From: Candidatus Bathyarchaeota archaeon
GTDB taxonomy: Archaea; Thermoproteota; Bathyarchaeia; TCS64
NCBI GenBank assembly: GCA_020346605.1
Contig: CP070784.1
Span: 2,008,105 to 2,072,104, forward strand
DNA: 64,000 nucleotides
Reading direction: 5' to 3'
Shown here: piece by piece, positions 330 to 64,000 of the stretch
Layout: each line of letters opens with the position of its first letter
Position numbering within the stretch: position 1 is the first letter of the stretch
The notes under the pieces: generated by a model
What the model was told of the DNA's origin: nothing
The model's input: only the letters and a program-made list of their open reading frames with translations
The model's database searches: none
Position numbers and translations under genes: made by a program

Positions 330-1490
330 ATGAGCAGTAACCTCCGCTCGCTGCTGCCTTTCTACGCGGTGATACTGCTCTGGGGTCTCGGCTCCGGGAT
401 GTTGACGCCGGTGCTCCCCCTCTACGTCCGCTCCCTAGGCTTCACCATAGATGAGTGGGGCTACCTGGTGATGGTCTACGCCGTGAGCACCTTCCTCTTC
501 GAGTGGGCGTGGGGCGCCCTCTCCGACAGGGTCGACAGGAGGTTCATCATCGCGGCGGGGCTCCTGTCGGGGGCGGCAGTCGTCCCCATCTACACATTGC
601 GCGTCTCGATCACCGTGTTCTACGTGCTCCAGTTCCTCAGGGGGGCGCTTTTCATCATGGTTGGCCCCGCCGTGAAGACACTCGTCTCGGACATGAACTC
701 CGGGGGCATCGGGCTCTCCATGGGAATGTACTCGTCCGTGAGGAGGCTCGGGAGCGTGCTGGGGCCTATCGCGGGAACGCTTGTGGCGCAGGCACTATCC
801 TACGAGTCAGCGCTACACTTGTACTCCGTCATCTACGTCATAGGCGCGGCGACGACCTTGATCTTCATCAGGGGAGCCCCTGCGTCGAGCGAGAGAGCGG
901 ACTCCTCGAGCCTGATACAGGACTGCAGAACACTGTTCTCAACGACCACGATAGTGATTCTCTTCGCGATACCTGTGATCGTCCACATGGGGAGGGCGGT
1001 GATCGGCTCCTATCTGCCCATCTACGCCCTGGAGGTCGTCGGCACATCAACAGTGGGGGTGGGCGCCCTTTTCTCCATCGGGAACGTGGCTGGATTCCTT
1101 ACGACTCCTGTCTTCGGCTGGATCTCGGACAGGTACAGCAGGGCGACGGTGGTGCTAACCTGCTTCTCACTCTCCTCGGTGGCGATGTTCAGCCTCTCCC
1201 TGGCGCGGACGAACGTGCAACTGGCCTTACTACTGATGATCTTCACGGTTTGCTTCTCCCCGCTGACGCCGCTCCTTCTGGCGATGCTGACGGACGCCAC
1301 TCCACCGGGTCTCCTTGGGACCTCCATGGGGATCTACAGCACCTTCGAGAACCTGGGCATCGTTTTCACACCCCCTTTGTATAGCCTCATCTGGAAGGTT
1401 TACTCCCCCAGTATCATCTTCGTTTTCAGTGCTATAACGCAGGTCTTTGGAATTCTCCTGGTGTTCTACGCACGCAAGAGATTGAGGTGA
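330..1490 (+). CDS. MFS transporter
   Basis: 386 aa with about 12 hydrophobic helices. MFS loop signatures GALSDRVDRRF (TM2-3) and GWISDRYSR (TM8-9). Confidence 0.85.
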   Translation: MSSNLRSLLPFYAVILLWGLGSGMLTPVLPLYVRSLGFTIDEWGYLVMVYAVSTFLFEWAWGALSDRVDRRFIIAAGLLSGAAVVPIYTLRVSITVFYVLQFLRGALFIMVGPAVKTLVSDMNSGGIGLSMGMYSSVRRLGSVLGPIAGTLVAQALSYESALHLYSVIYVIGAATTLIFIRGAPASSERADSSSLIQDCRTLFSTTTIVILFAIPVIVHMGRAVIGSYLPIYALEVVGTSTVGVGALFSIGNVAGFLTTPVFGWISDRYSRATVVLTCFSLSSVAMFSLSLARTNVQLALLLMIFTVCFSPLTPLLLAMLTDATPPGLLGTSMGIYSTFENLGIVFTPPLYSLIWKVYSPSIIFVFSAITQVFGILLVFYARKRLR

Positions 1491-1546
1491 TTCCCCATTC
1501 CTTGCAGCTGGGATAACCCTCAGGAACTGTTGTTTTGAGGCTATGT

Positions 1547-2770
1547 TCACTGACTCAGCAGCGGATCTTTCACCAGTGAAAAGTAGATCGCAGCGGCAAT
1601 CACACCCATGGCGCCCAGCATGCTCCCTAGGCTCAGGTAGCCATAGGAGAGCAGCATCCAGCCCCCCACGCCGGTCCCGAGGGTGGAACCCAGGCTCCCT
1701 GCGGCGGCGTTTATGGACATCATCGTCCCACGATGCCTGGGGACCTGCTCCAGAGTCAGGTTGTTGTTGGCCGAGGTGAGCATACCGTTCACCAGCGCGG
1801 CGGCCCAACCGAGCAGGAGGGCCACCCACAGATTGGAAATAGAGTAGTAGAGCAGCAGGAGCAGACCGGCCGGGGCCGCTGTCAAGCTCGTGACCCTCTT
1901 CCGGCCCATCCTGTTTACGATCCTGCCGCTGGTCAGGCTGCCCACGATGAAGGAGAAGGCTCCGACGATGGTCGAGACCGACGCGAAGCCCGTGGAGACC
2001 ATGAACCTCTGCCTGATGAACGAAGACGAGAAGGCCAGGTGGGTGCTCCAGACCGCCATGACGAGCAGGGAGCCGATAAGGCACGCCGCCGCTGACTTGT
2101 TCGTAAAGACGGCCCTGAAGGCCTCAGAGTAGCTCACATCCCCTCCGACGCGACCGTGGTCGCCGGGTCCCACGGGTATCCAAAAGTGGGCTAACAGGAG
2201 GCTGAGGATCGAGGTGGGCAGGACGAAGACTAGGAACACCGTGCGCCATCCGCCGAGGCCCTCAACGAAGGCTATTACCGGGGCTCCCACCAGATAGGCC
2301 AGTGCAGACGCTCCAATCATCCATCCAACGGTTCCCGCCCTTCTCTCCACTGGGAGAAGATCACCAACAAGCGCCGTGGACATCGGATTCGCCATCACCC
2401 CTGCCACGCCGACTAGGGAAAACATGAGCAGCATCACGCCGAAGTCAGGAGAGAAGGCGCAGCCCAGTGTCGACACGCACAGGAAGAGAAGCCCCGCGAG
2501 GAGAAGGGACTTGTGCCTGTACCGGACGCTGAGGAAGCCCATGAGCAGCGCCCCGAACACCCCGACGGCCGCTGACACGGTCCTGATCTGGCCCATGACG
2601 CCGACGGACACGCTGAAGGTGGCCGCGATGTCGATGAGCAGGAGCCCGGTCAGGATCCTCGGGAGTTGGAGCGCGAAGCGGGTGAGGCCCAGGGACGGCA
2701 GTATTAGTTTCTCCGAAGACCCTCCGCTCTCACTCTCTAGAGGTTGGGACGTCATGCTAGACGTGGTCAC
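1547..2770 (-). CDS. MFS transporter
   Basis: 407 aa, multi-pass hydrophobic, with MFS-like loop motif GRIVNRMGRKR. Convergent with the preceding MFS gene. Confidence 0.8.
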   Translation of the reverse strand: MTTSSMTSQPLESESGGSSEKLILPSLGLTRFALQLPRILTGLLLIDIAATFSVSVGVMGQIRTVSAAVGVFGALLMGFLSVRYRHKSLLLAGLLFLCVSTLGCAFSPDFGVMLLMFSLVGVAGVMANPMSTALVGDLLPVERRAGTVGWMIGASALAYLVGAPVIAFVEGLGGWRTVFLVFVLPTSILSLLLAHFWIPVGPGDHGRVGGDVSYSEAFRAVFTNKSAAACLIGSLLVMAVWSTHLAFSSSFIRQRFMVSTGFASVSTIVGAFSFIVGSLTSGRIVNRMGRKRVTSLTAAPAGLLLLLYYSISNLWVALLLGWAAALVNGMLTSANNNLTLEQVPRHRGTMMSINAAAGSLGSTLGTGVGGWMLLSYGYLSLGSMLGAMGVIAAAIYFSLVKDPLLSQ

Positions 2771-2812
2771 GAGTGATCAATATAATGTTTGCCCAAACTC
2801 CGAGGGGGAGTT

Positions 2813-3106
2813 CTAGCTAGGGCAGTTGACCACGATCGTCTTCGAGTACTCCCAGAGCCTCTCCTCGGAGTCGTGGGAGACAGCCCCCTTGAACTCCTGG
2901 AACTCGGCCACCGTCAGGTCCGTCTCGTAGATGAAGATATGGTCCTCCTCCACACCGAAGGGGAGGCCCCACCTCAGGAGCTCGACGCGGTGCTCACCGC
3001 ATAGCTGCTCGTGCCGAGGAAACCAGGTGTCCGCGAAGTAGCCGTAACCCTTCTCATGGGCGCTCTCCCGCCACTTGACGAAACACAGATATACGTAACG
3101 ACCCAC
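2813..3106 (-). CDS. hypothetical protein
   Basis: 97-aa ORF with ordinary amino-acid composition. A TATATAT box lies 35-41 nt upstream of the ATG on its strand. No family recognised. Confidence 0.45.
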   Translation of the reverse strand: MGRYVYLCFVKWRESAHEKGYGYFADTWFPRHEQLCGEHRVELLRWGLPFGVEEDHIFIYETDLTVAEFQEFKGAVSHDSEERLWEYSKTIVVNCPS

Positions 3107-3207
3107 GCCTTCACACCATGTCTATGTTGGGGGGTACTTGTATATATCCCAAATTCGGGTAAGGCCCTCACTATCAGTAAATTACCAAATACATGGACGG
3201 CGCTCGG

Positions 3208-3978
3208 TCATCTCTTCTCGGCCACGTACAGGACTGAGAGGTAGGGCCTCGTTACGGCTCCACCGTACTCCTCTTCAAGCAACTCGCCGATGCCGTCGTA
3301 CAGCTCCCGTCTCCTAGGCGGTTCAAGGCTCCTGTGGTCTGAGTAGGTGTCCAGGAGCTTAATGTACTGCTCCTTGGTGAAAACCCTCGACCACGGATAC
3401 CTCCGGACCTCCACCTTCCCGAATAGGCCCGAGCCATCGATGACCGCTTCCCTCTCCCTTATCTTCTCCTCGGTCGTGGGGATGTCGCTGATATCTCCCC
3501 ACTCTGGCACGACGCTCCTGTACACCCTCTGCACATCGCTGAAGAATCCGGTGTAAGGCGTCGGATGCATGTTCCAGAACAGAGCGATACTGCCCGTGTC
3601 CTTCAGTGCCTGAGCCGCCTTGAGGTAGCCGATCTCGGCTGGGATCCAGTGGAACGCCGTGGCGGATATAAGCAGGTCGAAGAAGCCCTCCTCCGGCTTC
3701 CATTCCTCGAAGGAGACGTTCCGGATCTCCACCTTCGGATAGGGTGCACAGTTCCTGCGAGCTATCACCACTAGCTCCTTCCCGATGTCCAGGCAGAGCA
3801 TCTCGTATCCGCGCTTTGCGAAGGGGATCGTGGCCTGACCTGTGCCGCAGCCGACTTCGAGTATCCTTCCTTCCGCCGGGACGCCGGAGATGCGCACGAC
3901 GTCCTCTATCAGCTCCTCGGGGTATCCGGGGCGGACCTCGTCGTACTCTCGAGCCACTCCATCAAAAATTTTTTCCAT
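3208..3978 (-). CDS. class I SAM-dependent methyltransferase
   Basis: 256 aa with SAM-binding motif I ILEVGCGTGQAT followed by an acidic residue at the end of beta-2 (MLCLD). Confidence 0.85.
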   Translation of the reverse strand: MEKIFDGVAREYDEVRPGYPEELIEDVVRISGVPAEGRILEVGCGTGQATIPFAKRGYEMLCLDIGKELVVIARRNCAPYPKVEIRNVSFEEWKPEEGFFDLLISATAFHWIPAEIGYLKAAQALKDTGSIALFWNMHPTPYTGFFSDVQRVYRSVVPEWGDISDIPTTEEKIREREAVIDGSGLFGKVEVRRYPWSRVFTKEQYIKLLDTYSDHRSLEPPRRRELYDGIGELLEEEYGGAVTRPYLSVLYVAEKR

Positions 3979-4139
3979 GGATAGTCCGCTTCAAGCGTCG
4001 TAGCTGATAGCCAAGGATATTGTGAATTCACATAATAAAAAGGGAGAACCTTCATGGAGATGGGGAGAAGAAATCGTGTTAACAATCCATTTTAGGCCTA
4101 GATTAAACTTAAAATTTCCATCGAAAATCTTGAAACCCC

Positions 4140-13698: not shown

Positions 13699-13822
13699 GC
13701 CATCAAGTCTGAGCATCATCCCATCTGGAGCCACGCAGCCGTGAAACTGCCCCGCGTAGTCCAGGCGCGGAGTTTGTGTGCAAAACCTTTTAGACAACGA
13801 GGGAGAAACCCGATCGATTATC

Positions 13823-15805
13823 ATGAAAAAGTTGTCTGAGTACAAGATCATGCCGATATTCCCGACGACACCAGTCAGCGACCCTCAGATCTCCCCCGAC
13901 GGGACGCGTATCCTCTTCACCTACTCCCAGGTGAACATGGAGGAGGACAAGTACGAGACGCAGATCTGGATCCAAGACTTAAAGGAGAAGAATCCGAGGC
14001 AGTTCACCTTCGGCAAACAGAACTCCACCAATCCCTGCTGGTCGCCCGACGGCAAGTTGATACTGTTCACCTCGAGCCGCCCCAGCGAGGACGACCCCAA
14101 GGAGGAGAAGAAGAAAAAGAAGGCCCAGCTCTACGTCCTCCCTGCTGACGGCGGCGAGGGAAGGCAGATCACCCAGGTCGAGGGCGGGGTCCAGAAGCCG
14201 GCGTGGTCCCCCAACGGGAAGAGTATCCTCTTTTTTTCGCATGTCTTCAAGGGGGAGAAGGCCACTGAGGAGAGCGACGTCAAGATCATCCGCAGGATGA
14301 AGTACAAGCACGACGGCCGCGGGTTCTCCGTGGGCGAGTATACCCATCTTTTCGTCGTCCCTGCGAAGGGGGGGAAGGTGAAGCAGCTCACGGACGGCGA
14401 GTACGACGTCGAGGCCGCCTCATGGTCTCCGGATGGCAAGACGATAGCGTTCATCTCCAACATGGACGAGGACGCCGACAAGTCCTTCTTCAGGAGCATC
14501 TACACCGTTCCCGTCAAGGGCGGGGAGCCCGAGCTGCTGAGGAAAGACCTCGGCAGGATTAGCGACCTACAATGGTCCCCGGACGGAAAATACATCGCAT
14601 ACACGGGTCGCGAGATTGAGGACCCCGACCTCGTCTGGCACAAGAACAGCGAGCTCTTCGTTCTTCCCGTCGGAAGGGGTAAGCCCAAGTGCCTCACAGC
14701 CGGCTTCGACAGGACCCTCAGCAGGGGCGGCGAGCTCAAATGGACGCCCGACTCCAAGGCCCTCTATGTCAAGTTCCCCAACTATGGCACCAACCACGTC
14801 TACAAGGTGACCATGAAGGGCGAGGTCGAGCCCGTCACCGAGGGGAATATGAACGTCGGCTCCTACAGCCTCGACGACGCCTGCTGCAAGGTGGCCTTCT
14901 CCGCCTCCGACGCAGTGACCCCGTCCGAACTCTGGATCTGGGACGAGGAGGGGCAGAGGAAGCTCACAGACCTGAACAAGCGCCTGCTAAAGAAGCTGCA
15001 CGTCAGCGAGCCGGAGGAGTTCTGGTTCACCGCCAGCGACGGCGTTAAGGTGCAGGGCTGGATCGTGAAGCCCTACGAGTTCAAGGAGGGGGAGAAGTAC
15101 CCGACCGTCATCGAGATCCACGGCGGGCCGCGGGGAGGCTACGGTTTCAACCTGGGAGCGGCAGAACACGAGTTCCATGTCCTGGCTGACCACGGGTACG
15201 TGGTCGTCTACACCAACCCCAGGGCGAGCACCGGCTACGGGGAGCAGTTCGCCGGCATCATCTCGGGGCACTGGGGGGAGAGGGACTACGACGACATCAT
15301 GGAGGCCACCGACTACGTCATCGAGAACTACGACTACATAGACCCGAAGAGGTTCGGGGTCCTCGGAGGGAGCTACGGTGGCTTCATGACCAACTGGATC
15401 GTGGGGCACACCGACAGGTACAAGGCTGCTGTGACCCAGAGGAGCATCAGCAACTGGTACAGCTTCCACGGGACCAGCGACATCGGCTGGATGACCCTGC
15501 CCACCCACGAACTGATCAACGGCAGCGATCCCTGGGACGACCTGGAGCTCTGCATGGAGAAGTCGCCGATAACCTACGTGAAGAACATGGTGACCCCACT
15601 GCTGATCATCCACTCCGAGAACGACCACCGATGCCCCATGGAGCAGGGGGAGCAGCTCTACATCGCCCTGAAGAAGCTGGGACGCACGACGGAGTTCGTC
15701 AGGTTCCCCGACGAGCCCCACGGACTGAGCAGGACGGGGAAGCCCAAGCACAGGGAGGAGCGGCTTCAGCACTTCGTCCGCTGGTTCGACAGGTACCTCA
15801 AGTAG
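13823..15805 (+). CDS. S9-family serine peptidase (acylaminoacyl-peptidase/prolyl oligopeptidase-like)
   Basis: 660 aa. N-terminal beta-propeller with repeated SPDG blades. Alpha/beta hydrolase domain with nucleophile elbow GGSYGG, ENDHRCP and PDEPHGL. Start moved to MKKLSEYKIMP by alignment with paralogue 17148..19118 (ORF track start 13778). Confidence 0.9.
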   Translation: MKKLSEYKIMPIFPTTPVSDPQISPDGTRILFTYSQVNMEEDKYETQIWIQDLKEKNPRQFTFGKQNSTNPCWSPDGKLILFTSSRPSEDDPKEEKKKKKAQLYVLPADGGEGRQITQVEGGVQKPAWSPNGKSILFFSHVFKGEKATEESDVKIIRRMKYKHDGRGFSVGEYTHLFVVPAKGGKVKQLTDGEYDVEAASWSPDGKTIAFISNMDEDADKSFFRSIYTVPVKGGEPELLRKDLGRISDLQWSPDGKYIAYTGREIEDPDLVWHKNSELFVLPVGRGKPKCLTAGFDRTLSRGGELKWTPDSKALYVKFPNYGTNHVYKVTMKGEVEPVTEGNMNVGSYSLDDACCKVAFSASDAVTPSELWIWDEEGQRKLTDLNKRLLKKLHVSEPEEFWFTASDGVKVQGWIVKPYEFKEGEKYPTVIEIHGGPRGGYGFNLGAAEHEFHVLADHGYVVVYTNPRASTGYGEQFAGIISGHWGERDYDDIMEATDYVIENYDYIDPKRFGVLGGSYGGFMTNWIVGHTDRYKAAVTQRSISNWYSFHGTSDIGWMTLPTHELINGSDPWDDLELCMEKSPITYVKNMVTPLLIIHSENDHRCPMEQGEQLYIALKKLGRTTEFVRFPDEPHGLSRTGKPKHREERLQHFVRWFDRYLK

Positions 15806-16982: not shown

Positions 16983-17147
16983 ACCGATGGTGAATCATTT
17001 TAGACCGTACTCAAATTTCAACGTACCCCCTCGATCCACCTTCGTTCCATTCCGGCTTCCATCCATGTGGCCACCAGAGCCGGAGAGCGACAGTTCCTTC
17101 GACTAGAAAACGATTTAGGAAAACAGCTCCACCATACTACGACAACG

Positions 17148-19118
17148 ATGAAGAAACTCGAGGACTACAAGATCATGCCCCTGTTCGCCTCGACTCCTGT
17201 GGGCGACCCGCAGGTCTCCCCGGACGGTGGCAGGATCCTGTTCACCCACTCCACCATCGACATGAAGGAGGACAAGTACCGCACCCACATCTGGCTCCAA
17301 GACCTGGGGGAGAAGAATCCCAGGCAGTTCACCTATGGCGCCGGCAGCGAGAGCTACCCCCGCTGGTCACCGGACGGCAAGGAGGTGCTGTTCCTGACGA
17401 ATAGGGAAGGCATCGGGAAGAACGACAAGAAGCCAACGCCCCAGATCTACGTTCTGAGGGCCGACGGGGGCGAGGCGAGGAAGGTCACCGACATGGAGGA
17501 GGGCGTCCAGCGCCCAGAGTGGTCCCCCAACGGTAGGAGCATCCTGTTCCTGTCCAGGGTATTCAAGGGGGAGAAGATGGACGGCGAGAGCGACGTTAAG
17601 GTGATCAGGCGTGTCAAGTACAGGTTCGACGCCCAGGGCTACTTCGTGGAGAAGTACACCCACCTGTTCACCGTCCCTGCCAAAGGGGGGAAGGCCAAGC
17701 AGCTGACGGAAGGGCTCTACGACGTGGAGTCCCCGGTATGGTCGCCGGACGCGAATAGGATAGCCTTCGTATCCAACCTCGACGAGGACGGCGACATCTC
17801 CCGGTACAAGCACATATACGTGGTCCCAGTGAAGGGGGGAGCCCCCGAGGTACTGCTCAGATGGAACGGGACCATCAACAGCATCTCCTGGTCGACATGC
17901 AGAGGGTACATCGCCTTTATAGGGCGCATCATCGAGGACCCGAGCCTGGTCTGGCACAAGAACAACGAGGTCTTCCTTCTTCCGGTCGAGGGCGGCGAGC
18001 CTAAGTACCTCACCGGCGATCTGGACAGGACGGTCTCCGGCGCAGCCCTGAAATGGTCTCCCGAATCAGGCGGCGTCTATTTCAAGATCAACGACCACGG
18101 TGAGACTCACATCTGCCGTGTGGATCTGGACGGCGCGGTGGAAAGGGTCACCGAGGGGAAGATGATGGTCGGCGACTATAGCATCGACGGGTCAGGCTCC
18201 CTCATCGCCTTCAACTGCACGGACAGCGCGACCCCCTACGAGCTCTGGATCAGGGACGGGAAGGGCCAGAGGAGGCTCACCGAGCTGACGAAGGGCTTCA
18301 TGAGGAAGCAGGTTATCAGCGAGCCGGAAGAGTTTTGGTTCACCGCCAGCGACGGCGCAGAGGTCCAGGGATGGATCATCAAGCCCCACGGATACGAGGA
18401 GGGCGAAAAGTACCCCACCTTGTTTGAGGTGCACGGCGGCCCCAGAGGTGCCTACGGGTACAGCTACGGCGCGGCGAACCACGAGTTCCAGGTCCTCGCC
18501 GGCCATGGCTACGCCGTGGCCTACACGAACCCCAGGGGGAGCACGGGTTTCGGCGAGGAGTTCGCCGGGGTCATCTCGGGCCACTGGGGGGAGAGGGACT
18601 ACATGGACGTCATGGAGGCTGTGGACCATGTGACTGGGGCCTACCACTACGTCGACGGCGACAGGCTCGGAATACTGGGTGGCTCCTACGGCGGTTACAT
18701 GACAAACTGGGTGGTGGGCCACACGGACAGGTTCAAGGCAGCGGTTACGATGAGGGGCATCAGCAACTGGTACAGCATGATGGGCACCAGCGACATCGGC
18801 TGGCAGGACCACGACGTCTCCTGGGGCAAGAACGCCTGGGAGAACCTGGACGAGATCATGAGCAAGTCGCCGATCAGCTACCTGGGGAACGTCACCACGC
18901 CTCTGCTGATCATCCACTCCGAGAACGACTTCAGGTGCCCCGTGGAGCAGGACGAACAGATGTTTATCGGACTCAAGAAGCAGGGGAAGGAGACGGAGTT
19001 CGTCAGGTTCCCCGACGAGTCCCACGGCCTCTCCAGGGGCGGCAAGCCCAAGCACAGGCTAGAGCGGCTCAGGCACATCGTTCGGTGGTTCGACCGCTAC
19101 CTCAAGGGGGACGAGTAG
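17148..19118 (+). CDS. S9-family serine peptidase (paralogue)
   Basis: 656 aa, colinear with 13823..15805 (MKKLEDYKIMPLF..., GGSYGG, ENDFRCP, PDESHGL). ORF track start 17067 rejected in favour of ATG 17148. Confidence 0.9.
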   Translation: MKKLEDYKIMPLFASTPVGDPQVSPDGGRILFTHSTIDMKEDKYRTHIWLQDLGEKNPRQFTYGAGSESYPRWSPDGKEVLFLTNREGIGKNDKKPTPQIYVLRADGGEARKVTDMEEGVQRPEWSPNGRSILFLSRVFKGEKMDGESDVKVIRRVKYRFDAQGYFVEKYTHLFTVPAKGGKAKQLTEGLYDVESPVWSPDANRIAFVSNLDEDGDISRYKHIYVVPVKGGAPEVLLRWNGTINSISWSTCRGYIAFIGRIIEDPSLVWHKNNEVFLLPVEGGEPKYLTGDLDRTVSGAALKWSPESGGVYFKINDHGETHICRVDLDGAVERVTEGKMMVGDYSIDGSGSLIAFNCTDSATPYELWIRDGKGQRRLTELTKGFMRKQVISEPEEFWFTASDGAEVQGWIIKPHGYEEGEKYPTLFEVHGGPRGAYGYSYGAANHEFQVLAGHGYAVAYTNPRGSTGFGEEFAGVISGHWGERDYMDVMEAVDHVTGAYHYVDGDRLGILGGSYGGYMTNWVVGHTDRFKAAVTMRGISNWYSMMGTSDIGWQDHDVSWGKNAWENLDEIMSKSPISYLGNVTTPLLIIHSENDFRCPVEQDEQMFIGLKKQGKETEFVRFPDESHGLSRGGKPKHRLERLRHIVRWFDRYLKGDE

Positions 19119-57230: not shown

Positions 57231-58520
57231 ATGGATCCTCGGATTGTGTTGATCGGCGCCGGGAGCAGCGAGTTCGGCTTCAACTCCGTGCTCGACGCCC
57301 TGAACATCGAACAACTGCGCGGGTGCAACCTTGTACTCCACGACATCGACGCCGGTAGGCTGGAGACGATGGCGAGCCTCGCTGGGAGGATGGTGGAGGC
57401 GACGGGATCGGGGATCGAGCTGGAGTCGACCATCGACAGGATGGAGGCCCTCGCGGGCGCCGACTTCGTCGTCCTCTCCATCGAGGTGGACAGGATAAAC
57501 AGGTGGAGGATGGACTGGGAGATCCCCTTCAAGCACGGGATCAGGCAGGTCATCGGCGAGAACGGCGGCCCCGGTGGACTCTTCCATACCCTCCGGAACG
57601 TGCCCCCCATCCTTGCGATCTGCCGTGACATGGAGGATCTCTGCCCCGATGCCCTGCTCTTCAGCTATACTAACCCCGTCTCACGTCTCTGCCTCACCAT
57701 CGACAGGTACACAGAGATCAGGTCCGTGGGGCTCTGCCACGAGGTGGAGCACCAGATGCGGCGCCTCTCCAAGGTGATGGGCGTCCCTACGGCTATCGTC
57801 GATGCGGTCTCCGCTGGACTCAACCACTTCAGCTGGTTCTTGGAGCTGCGGCTCAAGGACGGCGAGGACGCCTACCCCATGCTCAACGAGGGGCTCAAGA
57901 GTGTGGAGCACGGCTTCCAACCGCTCTGCCGGGCTATGTACGACAAGTTCGGCCTCTACCCCTCAACGGACGACAACCACATGGGGGAGTACCTGGCCTA
58001 CGGGTGGCAGGCCTGCCCCGAGGTGGACAGGAGCCCCAGCTGGATAGACAGGATGGAGGCGTCGGGCAACGAGAAGTGGCTCGGCGTCAAGAGGATCATC
58101 GACGGCGTGGACCCCCTGGACGTGGAGGGGCGCCTCTCCGGGGAGAGGGTGATGCCCATCATCGCCGGCATCGTATCCAACAGCCGCCACCTGGAGTACC
58201 AGGTGAACCTCCCCAACGAGGGGCAGGTGAGCAACCTCATCGAGGGCGCCGTGGTCGAGAGCCCCGCCGTCGTCGACGGCAGCGGAGTCCACCCCGTCCA
58301 CGTGGGCCCCCTCCCCGACGGGCTCGCAGCCCTCTGCAACATCCAGATCATGGTGCAGGACCTCGTCGTGGAGGCCGCAGTCAACGGCGACAGGGAGATC
58401 GCCCTCCAGGCGATGCTCGCCGACCCAGTGGTGCAGGACCTGCAGGCGGCGAGGCTGGCCTTCGAAGAGCTTATGGAGGCCCACGCCGATCTCCTACCCC
58501 AATTCATGGAGGAGAGCTGA
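57231..58520 (+). CDS. glycoside hydrolase family 4 (NAD/Mn-dependent)
   Basis: 429 aa with Rossmann IVLIGAGSSEFG and a GLCHE motif. Confidence 0.8.
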   Translation: MDPRIVLIGAGSSEFGFNSVLDALNIEQLRGCNLVLHDIDAGRLETMASLAGRMVEATGSGIELESTIDRMEALAGADFVVLSIEVDRINRWRMDWEIPFKHGIRQVIGENGGPGGLFHTLRNVPPILAICRDMEDLCPDALLFSYTNPVSRLCLTIDRYTEIRSVGLCHEVEHQMRRLSKVMGVPTAIVDAVSAGLNHFSWFLELRLKDGEDAYPMLNEGLKSVEHGFQPLCRAMYDKFGLYPSTDDNHMGEYLAYGWQACPEVDRSPSWIDRMEASGNEKWLGVKRIIDGVDPLDVEGRLSGERVMPIIAGIVSNSRHLEYQVNLPNEGQVSNLIEGAVVESPAVVDGSGVHPVHVGPLPDGLAALCNIQIMVQDLVVEAAVNGDREIALQAMLADPVVQDLQAARLAFEELMEAHADLLPQFMEES

Positions 58521-62512: not shown

Positions 62513-62725
62513 CAAAGCTCGCCACCGATTAAAGACAATCTCTTTCATCAAGAATAACTGTAATTCGTCGAATCTGACTTCACAGTCTTAATGTGATGAT
62601 AACAAGAGGGGGATCGCGAACACAGACAGGCGTGGATCAGGGCGGTTACACGCCCCTCAAAATGCATGCTTCCCCATGACATAGTGACATATTTAGATGA
62701 TTGGGTTTGTCGCATACGCGTTGTT

Positions 62726-62735
62726 AAAGAAAAAA
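62726..62735 (-). terminator. oligo-T tract after the collagen-like gene
   Basis: On the minus strand TTTTTTCTTT lies 14 nt after the stop at 62749. Confidence 0.4.
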
Positions 62736-62748
62736 GCAGGTAGCGTTG

Positions 62749-63309
62749 TCAAAGTACCATGGCAACGACGTCAACTCGTGCTGGCATTGGCGTAAATAGT
62801 CGGATGATTACCTCGGAGGGGCCCGGTTCTATAGGGACCGCGATTACTGCATAACTGAACATGTCATCCACATGTGACCACGGGTAGTTCCTATGGATGT
62901 CCGGGTAAACGTTAACATGTATTGAGTCGCCGCTGAAAGCGTAGTAATTAATTACGAACAATACCAATTTCGGCTCCAAGGATTCGAAGTTGAACAAGAA
63001 ATCAGTCACAAATTCAGTTGTTACAAAGCTGTAGCGTTTGACCTCGTACCCCTCTCCGAGAACCCACCGAGGCCCCTGTGGACCGATTGGGCCTTCCGGT
63101 CCCTGTATTCATTGTGGACCTTCTGGGCCTTGCTCACCCTGCAGGCCTACAGGTCCAGGAGCTCCCTCAGGACCAGGTTGTCCTTCAATGCCTGGTGGGC
63201 CAGCAGGTCCGGGTTCACCTGGCGGACCAGCCGGTCCGGGTTCACCCGGTGGGCCAGAGGGTCCAGGAATCGACTGAATGTCGTCGATCTGTTCTTGGAG
63301 GGAGGTCAA
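62749..63309 (-). pseudogene. collagen-like (G-X-Y repeat) protein with C-terminal globular domain, interrupted by in-frame TGA at 63109-63111
   Basis: ORFs 63109..63309 and 62749..63009 are in one frame. There are 17 G-X-Y triplets, then TGA in a Gly position, then [14 protein letters not shown] and an approximately 105-aa non-repeat domain. The start is TTG. Confidence 0.6.
63193..63257. repeat. 27-nt tandem repeat (about 2.4 copies) inside the collagen-like gene
   Basis: Units 63193-63219 and 63220-63246 are near-identical and encode GEPGPAGPP on the minus strand. A partial third unit follows. Confidence 0.7.
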
Positions 63310-63459
63310 TGTCGCCCATATATTTGCTAGGGCGCGCGCTTAGAGCTTAGAGCGCAAACGCGCTAACCACCGCTGGCAGAGAATGAAAACTGATAGGCAG
63401 CACTCACGATCGAGGAATCATACAGAGGCCATCTAATTCTAACAACTCTACAATAAGTT

Positions 63460-63828
63460 GTGAAGAAATTTACCTTTAAAAGAATCCCGTCTCATAATCT
63501 TTATGTCATAATAAACAATTATGAAGACGCGAAGGAAGAAAACGCGCGAACAATGCAACGACTCCCATGGTACGATGAGAACAAGCGCAGCGGATTACTC
63601 GTGACTCTAGGTTTGATTACCATCGTGCTGATCGCCGCTTACATCCGGTATGCTGACGGCGCTAGCAGTACGGAGACTATTTTGGTGCTTGTCATCGTCG
63701 CAACGCTTGCCATTTTGGCGCGTCAATTTCTTCGATGGCTCAGGGAGCAATCAATCTGCTGGTGGACGGGCCACCCTGACACGTCGTGGGAAGGTAATCG
63801 CGATGGCGAAAGGCGAGGGGAGATGTAG
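63460..63828 (+). CDS. hypothetical membrane protein
   Basis: 122 aa with a GTG start and two hydrophobic helices (LLVTLGLITIVLIAAYI, ILVLVIVATLAILA). Lies in the lower-G+C region. No family recognised. Confidence 0.4.
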   Translation: MKKFTFKRIPSHNLYVIINNYEDAKEENARTMQRLPWYDENKRSGLLVTLGLITIVLIAAYIRYADGASSTETILVLVIVATLAILARQFLRWLREQSICWWTGHPDTSWEGNRDGERRGEM

Positions 63829-64000
63829 GTGAGTTATTTAATAGATGACATTCTCCTTGCGATGCTCTTCCTCATGATCATTATAATGATCTTCCTACAG
63901 ATCGATCTGCTGAAATCTGACCCGGCTCAATGGCTGGCGATATTAAACATGAACTCGAACATGAGGTTCTGGAACTTTGCCGAGAAGTTACAGCCCACGA
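63829..64000 (+). CDS. hypothetical membrane protein, partial (runs off window)
   Basis: A GTG directly after the preceding TAG opens MSYLIDDILLAMLFLMIIIMIFLQ..., which stays open to the window end. Confidence 0.25.
   Translation, partial: MSYLIDDILLAMLFLMIIIMIFLQIDLLKSDPAQWLAILNMNSNMRFWNFAEKLQPT

Follow-up and report, generated by a model that had tools for sequence, protein, structure and literature searches.

Does an in-frame TGA that falls exactly on a glycine position of a collagen-like gene mark a codon that is read as sense, an error in the assembly or a gene that has been broken? The question is raised by the only run of at least five G-X-Y triplets found in the six frames of the window, by which we mean the whole stretch of 64,000 nucleotides that was analysed. 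Translation of the minus strand from 63330 to 62749 confirmed every detail of the initial annotation, in which a G-X-Y repeat gene had been described with a TGA in the Gly slot of its triplet 18. The gene occupies 63309-62749, and all of its features lie on the minus strand. A non-collagen N-terminal segment of 15 residues (63265-63309), read from a TTG at 63309-63307, is followed by 17 uninterrupted triplets (63112-63264) that form the first part of the collagen-like region. The TGA comes next, at 63109-63111, where the homologues have GGA (Gly). The same frame then continues as IQ plus four more triplets (63067-63108), which align with GIQGLRGPIGLQG of the intact relative P0002, and enters a non-repetitive C-terminal domain of 105 aa (62752-63066) that defines the family in homology searches and was studied further with an AlphaFold2 model and Foldseek. 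The gene is closed by a second TGA (62749-62751), which translation and alignment identify as the natural terminator, as the C-terminus ...VL* is common to all homologues.

With the internal stop replaced, the product matches the Pfam Collagen family PF01391 at E=3.2e-10, scoring 40 bits against a gathering cut-off of 27.2, and the 17 triplets before the stop are in phase with the 4 after it. The 27-nt tandem repeat that had been described in the gene is also real: TRF places it at 63191-63264, with 2.7 copies, 82% matches and units that encode GPPGEPGPA. Over its 187 codons the gene frame holds one internal stop, compared with 8 and 12 in the other two frames of the same strand, and past that stop it is fully open (no stop in 105 codons versus 6 to 7 in the other frames). 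The TTG is the only in-frame start candidate of the gene. The 3' end of an A/T-rich AAATATAT element (63318-63325) lies 9 nt upstream of it, and from a reading of the sequence this element may be an archaeal TATA box; a similar element, GAATATAT, is found upstream of the homologues at loci L003 and L004. A perfect 7-nt tandem repeat on the plus strand (GCTTAGA x 2.3, 63338-63353) sits just upstream of the TATA-like element. At the other end, a T-rich tract, TTTTTTCTTT (62726-62735), begins 13 nt past the terminal stop, resembles an archaeal terminator and may act as one; it is kept in L002 and L005, two loci that carry intact homologues. A scan for sigma-70 promoters and terminators was uninformative for an archaeal host.

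In our assessment, with a probability of about 0.7, a rare collagen-like protein of archaea is represented in the window by a young pseudogene or a recent nonsense allele of its gene. The ancestral gene is a single one. Its product has a short N-terminal part, a stalk of collagen repeats and a beta-sandwich head at the C-terminus, and the intact relatives have an N-terminal membrane anchor in addition. By analogy with other collagen-like proteins, this protein may have stood on the cell surface as a trimeric stalk and head. A G-to-T change in this Bathyarchaeia genome turned the GGA of triplet 18 into TGA. Since the host reads TGA as a stop, translation would end after 66 residues and the head, likely the module for trimerisation and binding, would not be made, presumably with loss of function; it is this combination that leads to the nonsense-allele reading. 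That reading is based on the Gly at this position in the homologues, the same TGA in a second assembly, the use of TGA as a terminator and the lack of a recoding structure. The missing anchor, the TTG start, a GGG-to-TGG change, the lack of an intact allele and the apparently eroded loci L003 and L004 point the same way. The mechanism is ordinary, and the locus is of mild interest for its undescribed head domain and for a membrane-anchored collagen architecture in archaea. For annotation purposes, the locus should be labelled as one disrupted gene and not as two hypothetical ORFs (66 and 86 aa), as gene callers have done.

The derivation of the stop can be followed in the only intact relatives, a cluster of five variants from ENA metagenomes (P0002 and P0004-P0007, 147-174 aa). 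All five have Gly opposite the window stop, in the context GEQGREGTQ-G-IQG, and the collagen parts of the window copy and of P0002, where the stretch reads GEQGREGTQGIQGLRGPIGLQG, align residue for residue. At the level of codons, the window has CAA TGA ATA CAG GGA and L002 has CAA GGA ATA CAG GGA, so that the GGA-to-TGA change proposed in the initial annotation is exactly the difference from this intact homologue. On this alignment the TGA is a derived G-to-T substitution in a GGA Gly codon of one ancestral gene, and the window copy thus has a premature stop in place of a sense codon of the intact homologues, as expected of a pseudogene or nonsense allele. An independent downstream ORF had been the alternative; the intact homologue spans both parts, and its alignment with the window shows that the post-stop triplets are homologous and not coincidental. 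Another Gly position has undergone a G-to-T change at the junction of stalk and head, in the last triplets before the head, where protein and DNA alignments place a TGG (Trp, 63066-63064) opposite the GGG (Gly of GVP) of the intact homologue.

Whether TGA terminates translation here depends on the host, which the initial annotation had taken to be an archaeon. Identity and synteny both bear this out. For the GH4 gene at 57231-58520, 21 of 22 matches were to Bathyarchaeia or Bathyarchaeota MAGs (the closest at 57-81% identity), and the gene order M55 peptidase, GH4, FTR1, amidohydrolase is conserved with Bathyarchaeia MAGs at 60-82% identity. Together these identify the window as Bathyarchaeia chromosome. 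TGA is the commonest terminator in the window: of the 58 genes in a crude set covering 89% of its length, 27 end with it. Since it also ends the collagen-like gene at a conserved C-terminus, a code in which TGA is sense is excluded for both host and gene, and genetic codes 4 and 25 were rejected on these grounds. A window-wide hunt for other genes split by an in-frame TGA was uninformative, because same-frame adjacency is too common at 61% G+C.

Against this background the other explanations can be weighed. A single-base change in a metagenome-type assembly invites the view that the TGA arose as an error of sequencing or consensus, or that it is a minor allele in a population that carries an intact GGA gene. 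We consider this improbable. A separately built Logan assembly of SRR14739666 contains a 1,750-bp contig (L001) that has the same TGA and, over about 1.58 kb (window 63977-62400), differs from the window by one base, a nearby SNP at 63179 (CAA -> CCA, GQP -> GPP). The recurrence of the TGA in this second assembly makes a simple assembly or consensus error unlikely, with the reservation that the two assemblies may derive from the same reads. Moreover, no intact allele of the locus was found among about 15 billion predicted proteins. The sole other database record of the locus is P0001, the 86-aa fragment downstream of the same stop, which corresponds to the ORF from the internal GTG on L001. 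The same contig bears on the proposal of a mobile element or virus as the bearer of the gene, with TGA translated as sense, for example as Gly (code 25) or Trp (code 4). The position of the stop at a Gly and the location of the gene in a 1.45-kb low-G+C end of the window would fit such an element, but TGA closes the gene itself at the conserved C-terminus and is a stop codon in the host, and neither a viral relative nor a nearby phage gene was found. L001 further runs from the low-G+C segment into the 3' end of an MFS gene, joining the region to a chromosomal gene and indicating that the junction is not an assembly chimera. Of all the readings considered, we give this one the least credence, close to none.

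Recoding of the UGA by the host is the other possibility. Selenocysteine machinery has been reported in some Ca. Bathyarchaeota (PMC9499178), and the UGA might accordingly encode Sec; this is, however, very improbable. The homologues have Gly and not Cys or Sec at the site, and a bulky residue at a collagen Gly position would have no redox rationale. No Rfam family reached its gathering threshold anywhere in the window, and around the gene nothing relevant, SECIS included, appeared at E<=10. For a 106-nt stretch that takes in the UGA and what follows it, the predicted RNA fold was ordinary (z=-0.26 relative to shuffles), as was that of the 3' region (z=-0.10), with no stable 3' hairpin, and the oligo-T tract 13 nt past the terminal stop leaves little room for a SECIS in a 3'UTR. 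A selenoprotein gene was rejected on this basis. Leaky or programmed readthrough by a near-cognate tRNA, which would yield some full-length protein beside a 66-aa collagen peptide, is the least implausible of the alternatives and still, in our estimate, unlikely. The intact downstream frame, a head domain with no accelerated change and the persistence of the stop in two assemblies can be counted in its favour. Against it, the homologues have a plain GGA, so that a two-product design is not conserved; no stimulatory structure is present; UGA serves for normal termination of the same gene; and the established cases of recoding in archaea are limited to Sec, Pyl and a single -1 frameshift (PMC8037382). 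In its more specific form, with Gly or a near-cognate residue inserted at a non-Sec, non-Pyl UGA to give a low and possibly regulated level of a full-length surface protein, it is somewhat less likely again. If this were true, archaea would have their first documented case of stop-codon readthrough without Sec or Pyl, which would bear on the extent of archaeal recoding, but nothing that we found favours this reading. Finally, the locus could make two functional products, the 66-aa collagen peptide and a head domain from an internal start. Loci with the head alone exist (L003 and L004), and gene callers predict an 86-aa ORF from the GTG at 63007-63009, the first canonical in-frame start past the internal stop. 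Initiation there would nevertheless cost the product about 19 residues, among them the whole of the first strand of the model and part of the second. An ATG that overlaps the stop, in CAATGA, is out of frame with the head and leads into an unrelated 32-codon ORF, and the head-only loci themselves have no proper start. Two functional products thus appear slightly less likely than an artefact, though less remote than selenocysteine.

How far the decay implied by the nonsense-allele reading has progressed was examined by comparing the window copy with its relatives. The window copy has a longer stalk than the intact form, the 27-nt repeat having lengthened its collagen region. Its N-terminal segment has no transmembrane helix, whereas P0002 and P0004 have the hydrophobic anchor RTILISIILSILLFYAIILTV, and no remnant of a membrane anchor was found in any frame upstream of the window gene. 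As further lesions, the TTG start, the Gly-to-Trp change and the absent anchor are no more than suggestive. In the head domain, lineage-specific amino-acid changes numbered 14 in the window copy, 12 in P0002 and 6 in L003, with no clear excess; the other homologues are about 50% identical to the window, so that synonymous sites are saturated. The open downstream frame and the lack of an excess of changes in the head domain imply either that inactivation was very recent or that the downstream part is still expressed, and the open frame together with the 14 versus 12 changes argues against an old pseudogenisation. We considered an out-of-frame ATG at 63319-63317 as the ancestral start, from which it would follow that the anchor was deleted with a shift of frame. 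This was rejected because the supporting alignment is not significant: for the pattern ATG..GACATTGA..AGAACA shared with L005, 152 of 1000 shuffles scored as well.

The head domain proved to belong to a very small family. When the 105-aa domain was run with HMMER against 1.84 billion representative proteins, only P0001 (the same locus), P0002 and P0003 were returned, three clusters in all. A profile search of a 5.8-billion-cluster collection returned the same two relatives, and a word-indexed search added no more. No relatives were found in GTDB genomes, IMG/VR or JGI metagenomes. Exact look-ups found no record of the 66-aa ORF, of the MFS protein or of the 122-aa membrane protein next to the gene. 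Four variants of the P0002 cluster, each of 174 aa, combine the N-terminal hydrophobic anchor with 13 G-X-Y triplets and the C-terminal domain, which is 51-52% identical to that of the window. Within the cluster (L002, L005 and L006), the collagen part, of about 45 aa, has about 7 variable sites and the 104-aa head has 2, and the anchor does not vary, indicating that X and Y positions of the stalk vary faster than the head.

The genomic context of the intact form is cellular. On the 18.6-kb contig L005, whose G+C content is 38-50%, the intact homologue is set among ordinary cellular genes, its neighbours being a methyltransferase, a 5'-nucleotidase, a Usp protein, a formate/nitrite transporter, PhoU and an HD protein. 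At two other loci, L003 (180-528) and L004 (about 350-702), the head domain occurs alone, with neither collagen region nor membrane anchor and with no canonical in-frame start ahead of the first strands. Just upstream, an in-frame TAG is present in L003, and L004 differs there by a 2-nt indel. Either these loci are what remains of eroded genes, or they stand alone as genes whose start is unusual. Taken together, the sequences suggest that the family is eroding in several lineages. We infer that the family is one of cellular, membrane-anchored stalk-and-head proteins; purely by architectural analogy with BclA and collagenous proteins of the C1q/TNF type, they probably form trimers in which the head nucleates the triple helix.

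For the head domain, AlphaFold2 with a three-sequence alignment returned, as a monomer, an all-beta domain of eight strands (mean pLDDT 74.8, pTM 0.69). The model agrees with the beta-rich C-terminal domain of about 105 aa described in the initial annotation and predicts an eight-stranded beta-sandwich. When this model, which is of moderate confidence at pLDDT 74.8, was compared with the PDB using Foldseek, nothing was found at E<=1e-3. The best matches, at TM 0.45-0.59, were generic jelly-roll or beta-sandwich folds (CBM35, GOLD, the RetS sensor and a haemagglutinin head), and C1q, TNF and BclA structures were absent from the top 50. A TNF/C1q jelly-roll, which had been put forward as a candidate fold, thus finds no specific counterpart in the predicted structure. 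Sequence searches were similarly unrewarding: Pfam gave nothing for the 105-aa domain but a sub-threshold B9-C2 match at E=0.017, and a PDB sequence search gave none better than E=0.015, to the unrelated Prp24.

A viral origin of the protein was also explored, as a search for homologues in archaeal viruses had been suggested; no relative was found in IMG/VR, or among GenBank phages by DNA and protein BLAST. PHROG matches to phage collagen-like tail fibres (PHROG 6320, 366, 5073 and others) reach E values down to 4.6e-20 and are confined to the G-X-Y repeat region, while the head has no PHROG match. Foldseek comparison with viral models gave weak similarities (TM<=0.62) to phage tail and host-specificity domains and to two giant-virus collagen-repeat proteins. 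The tail fibres thus share the repeats and a weak fold similarity of the head with the window gene, and differ from it in that the intact homologue lies among cellular genes. The possibility that the gene encodes a phage tail fibre or virion protein was rejected, since there is no homology outside the repeat and no viral genomic context. The resemblance to BclA/C1q-type proteins and phage fibres noted in the initial annotation therefore stands for the layout and does not extend to the head, for which there is no Pfam or PHROG match, no C1q, TNF or BclA structure among the top 50 Foldseek matches in the PDB and no viral relative.

In its layout the gene can be set beside several known systems. 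BclA of the Bacillus anthracis exosporium, a trimer with a C1q-like jelly-roll, likewise has a short N-terminus, G-X-Y repeats that vary by slippage and an all-beta head of about 100-130 aa. It has no sequence or specific fold match to the head of the window gene, whose host is archaeal, and it is attached to the exosporium, whereas the intact relatives are membrane-anchored and the window copy is interrupted by the stop. A further comparison is offered by C1q/TNF-like collagenous proteins with type II membrane topology, such as ectodysplasin-A. P0002 has the same order of parts as these, with an N-terminal membrane anchor, a stalk of only 13 collagen triplets and a C-terminal beta-sandwich head, but neither a Pfam C1q/TNF match nor a C1q/TNF structure among the top Foldseek matches was found, and the window copy has no anchor. 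The streptococcal proteins Scl1 and Scl2 trimerise through a globular domain at the N-terminus and are anchored in the wall by the C-terminus. They and archaeal collagen-like proteins likewise carry triple-helix repeats without hydroxyproline that are rich in Pro, Glu and Gln; the globular domain is N-terminal in the Scl proteins, in contrast to the C-terminal one of an undescribed family in the window gene. QGP triplets are frequent in archaeal collagen-like proteins (PMC11923368). Such proteins are rare in archaea, as the initial annotation had stated, but they have already been catalogued (PMC11923368). The analysis uncovers a very small archaeal family in which an undescribed beta-sandwich head is joined through a collagen stalk to a membrane anchor. 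Its layout parallels those of bacterial BclA and of animal collagenous membrane proteins of the C1q/TNF type, which suggests convergent collagen stalks on archaeal surfaces.

The low-G+C setting described for the gene is also real, with a G+C content of 0.496 for 62551-64000 compared with 0.609 in the rest of the window; that of the C-terminal domain is 0.47. This 1.45-kb segment may have been horizontally acquired. It also encodes a predicted membrane protein of 122 aa (63460-63828, plus strand), with weak matches to DUF1673 and PHROG 28541, and a further hydrophobic ORF that runs off the window end.

Two minor observations concern the remainder of the window. The closest match of all, at 76-82% amino-acid identity, is to a contig labelled 'Patescibacteria group bacterium' (L007, DATLAV010000206.1, positions 1229-4139), on which GH4, the next gene and the amidohydrolase occur in the window order; this contig is probably mis-binned or mislabelled and really archaeal. 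On the plus strand, 13778-15805 and 17067-19118, which lie 1.3 kb apart, encode paralogues of about 680 aa that combine a TolB-like propeller with an S9 (Dpp5-like) peptidase. The window also holds several amidohydrolases and M20 and M55 peptidases, making this a stretch rich in peptide degradation.
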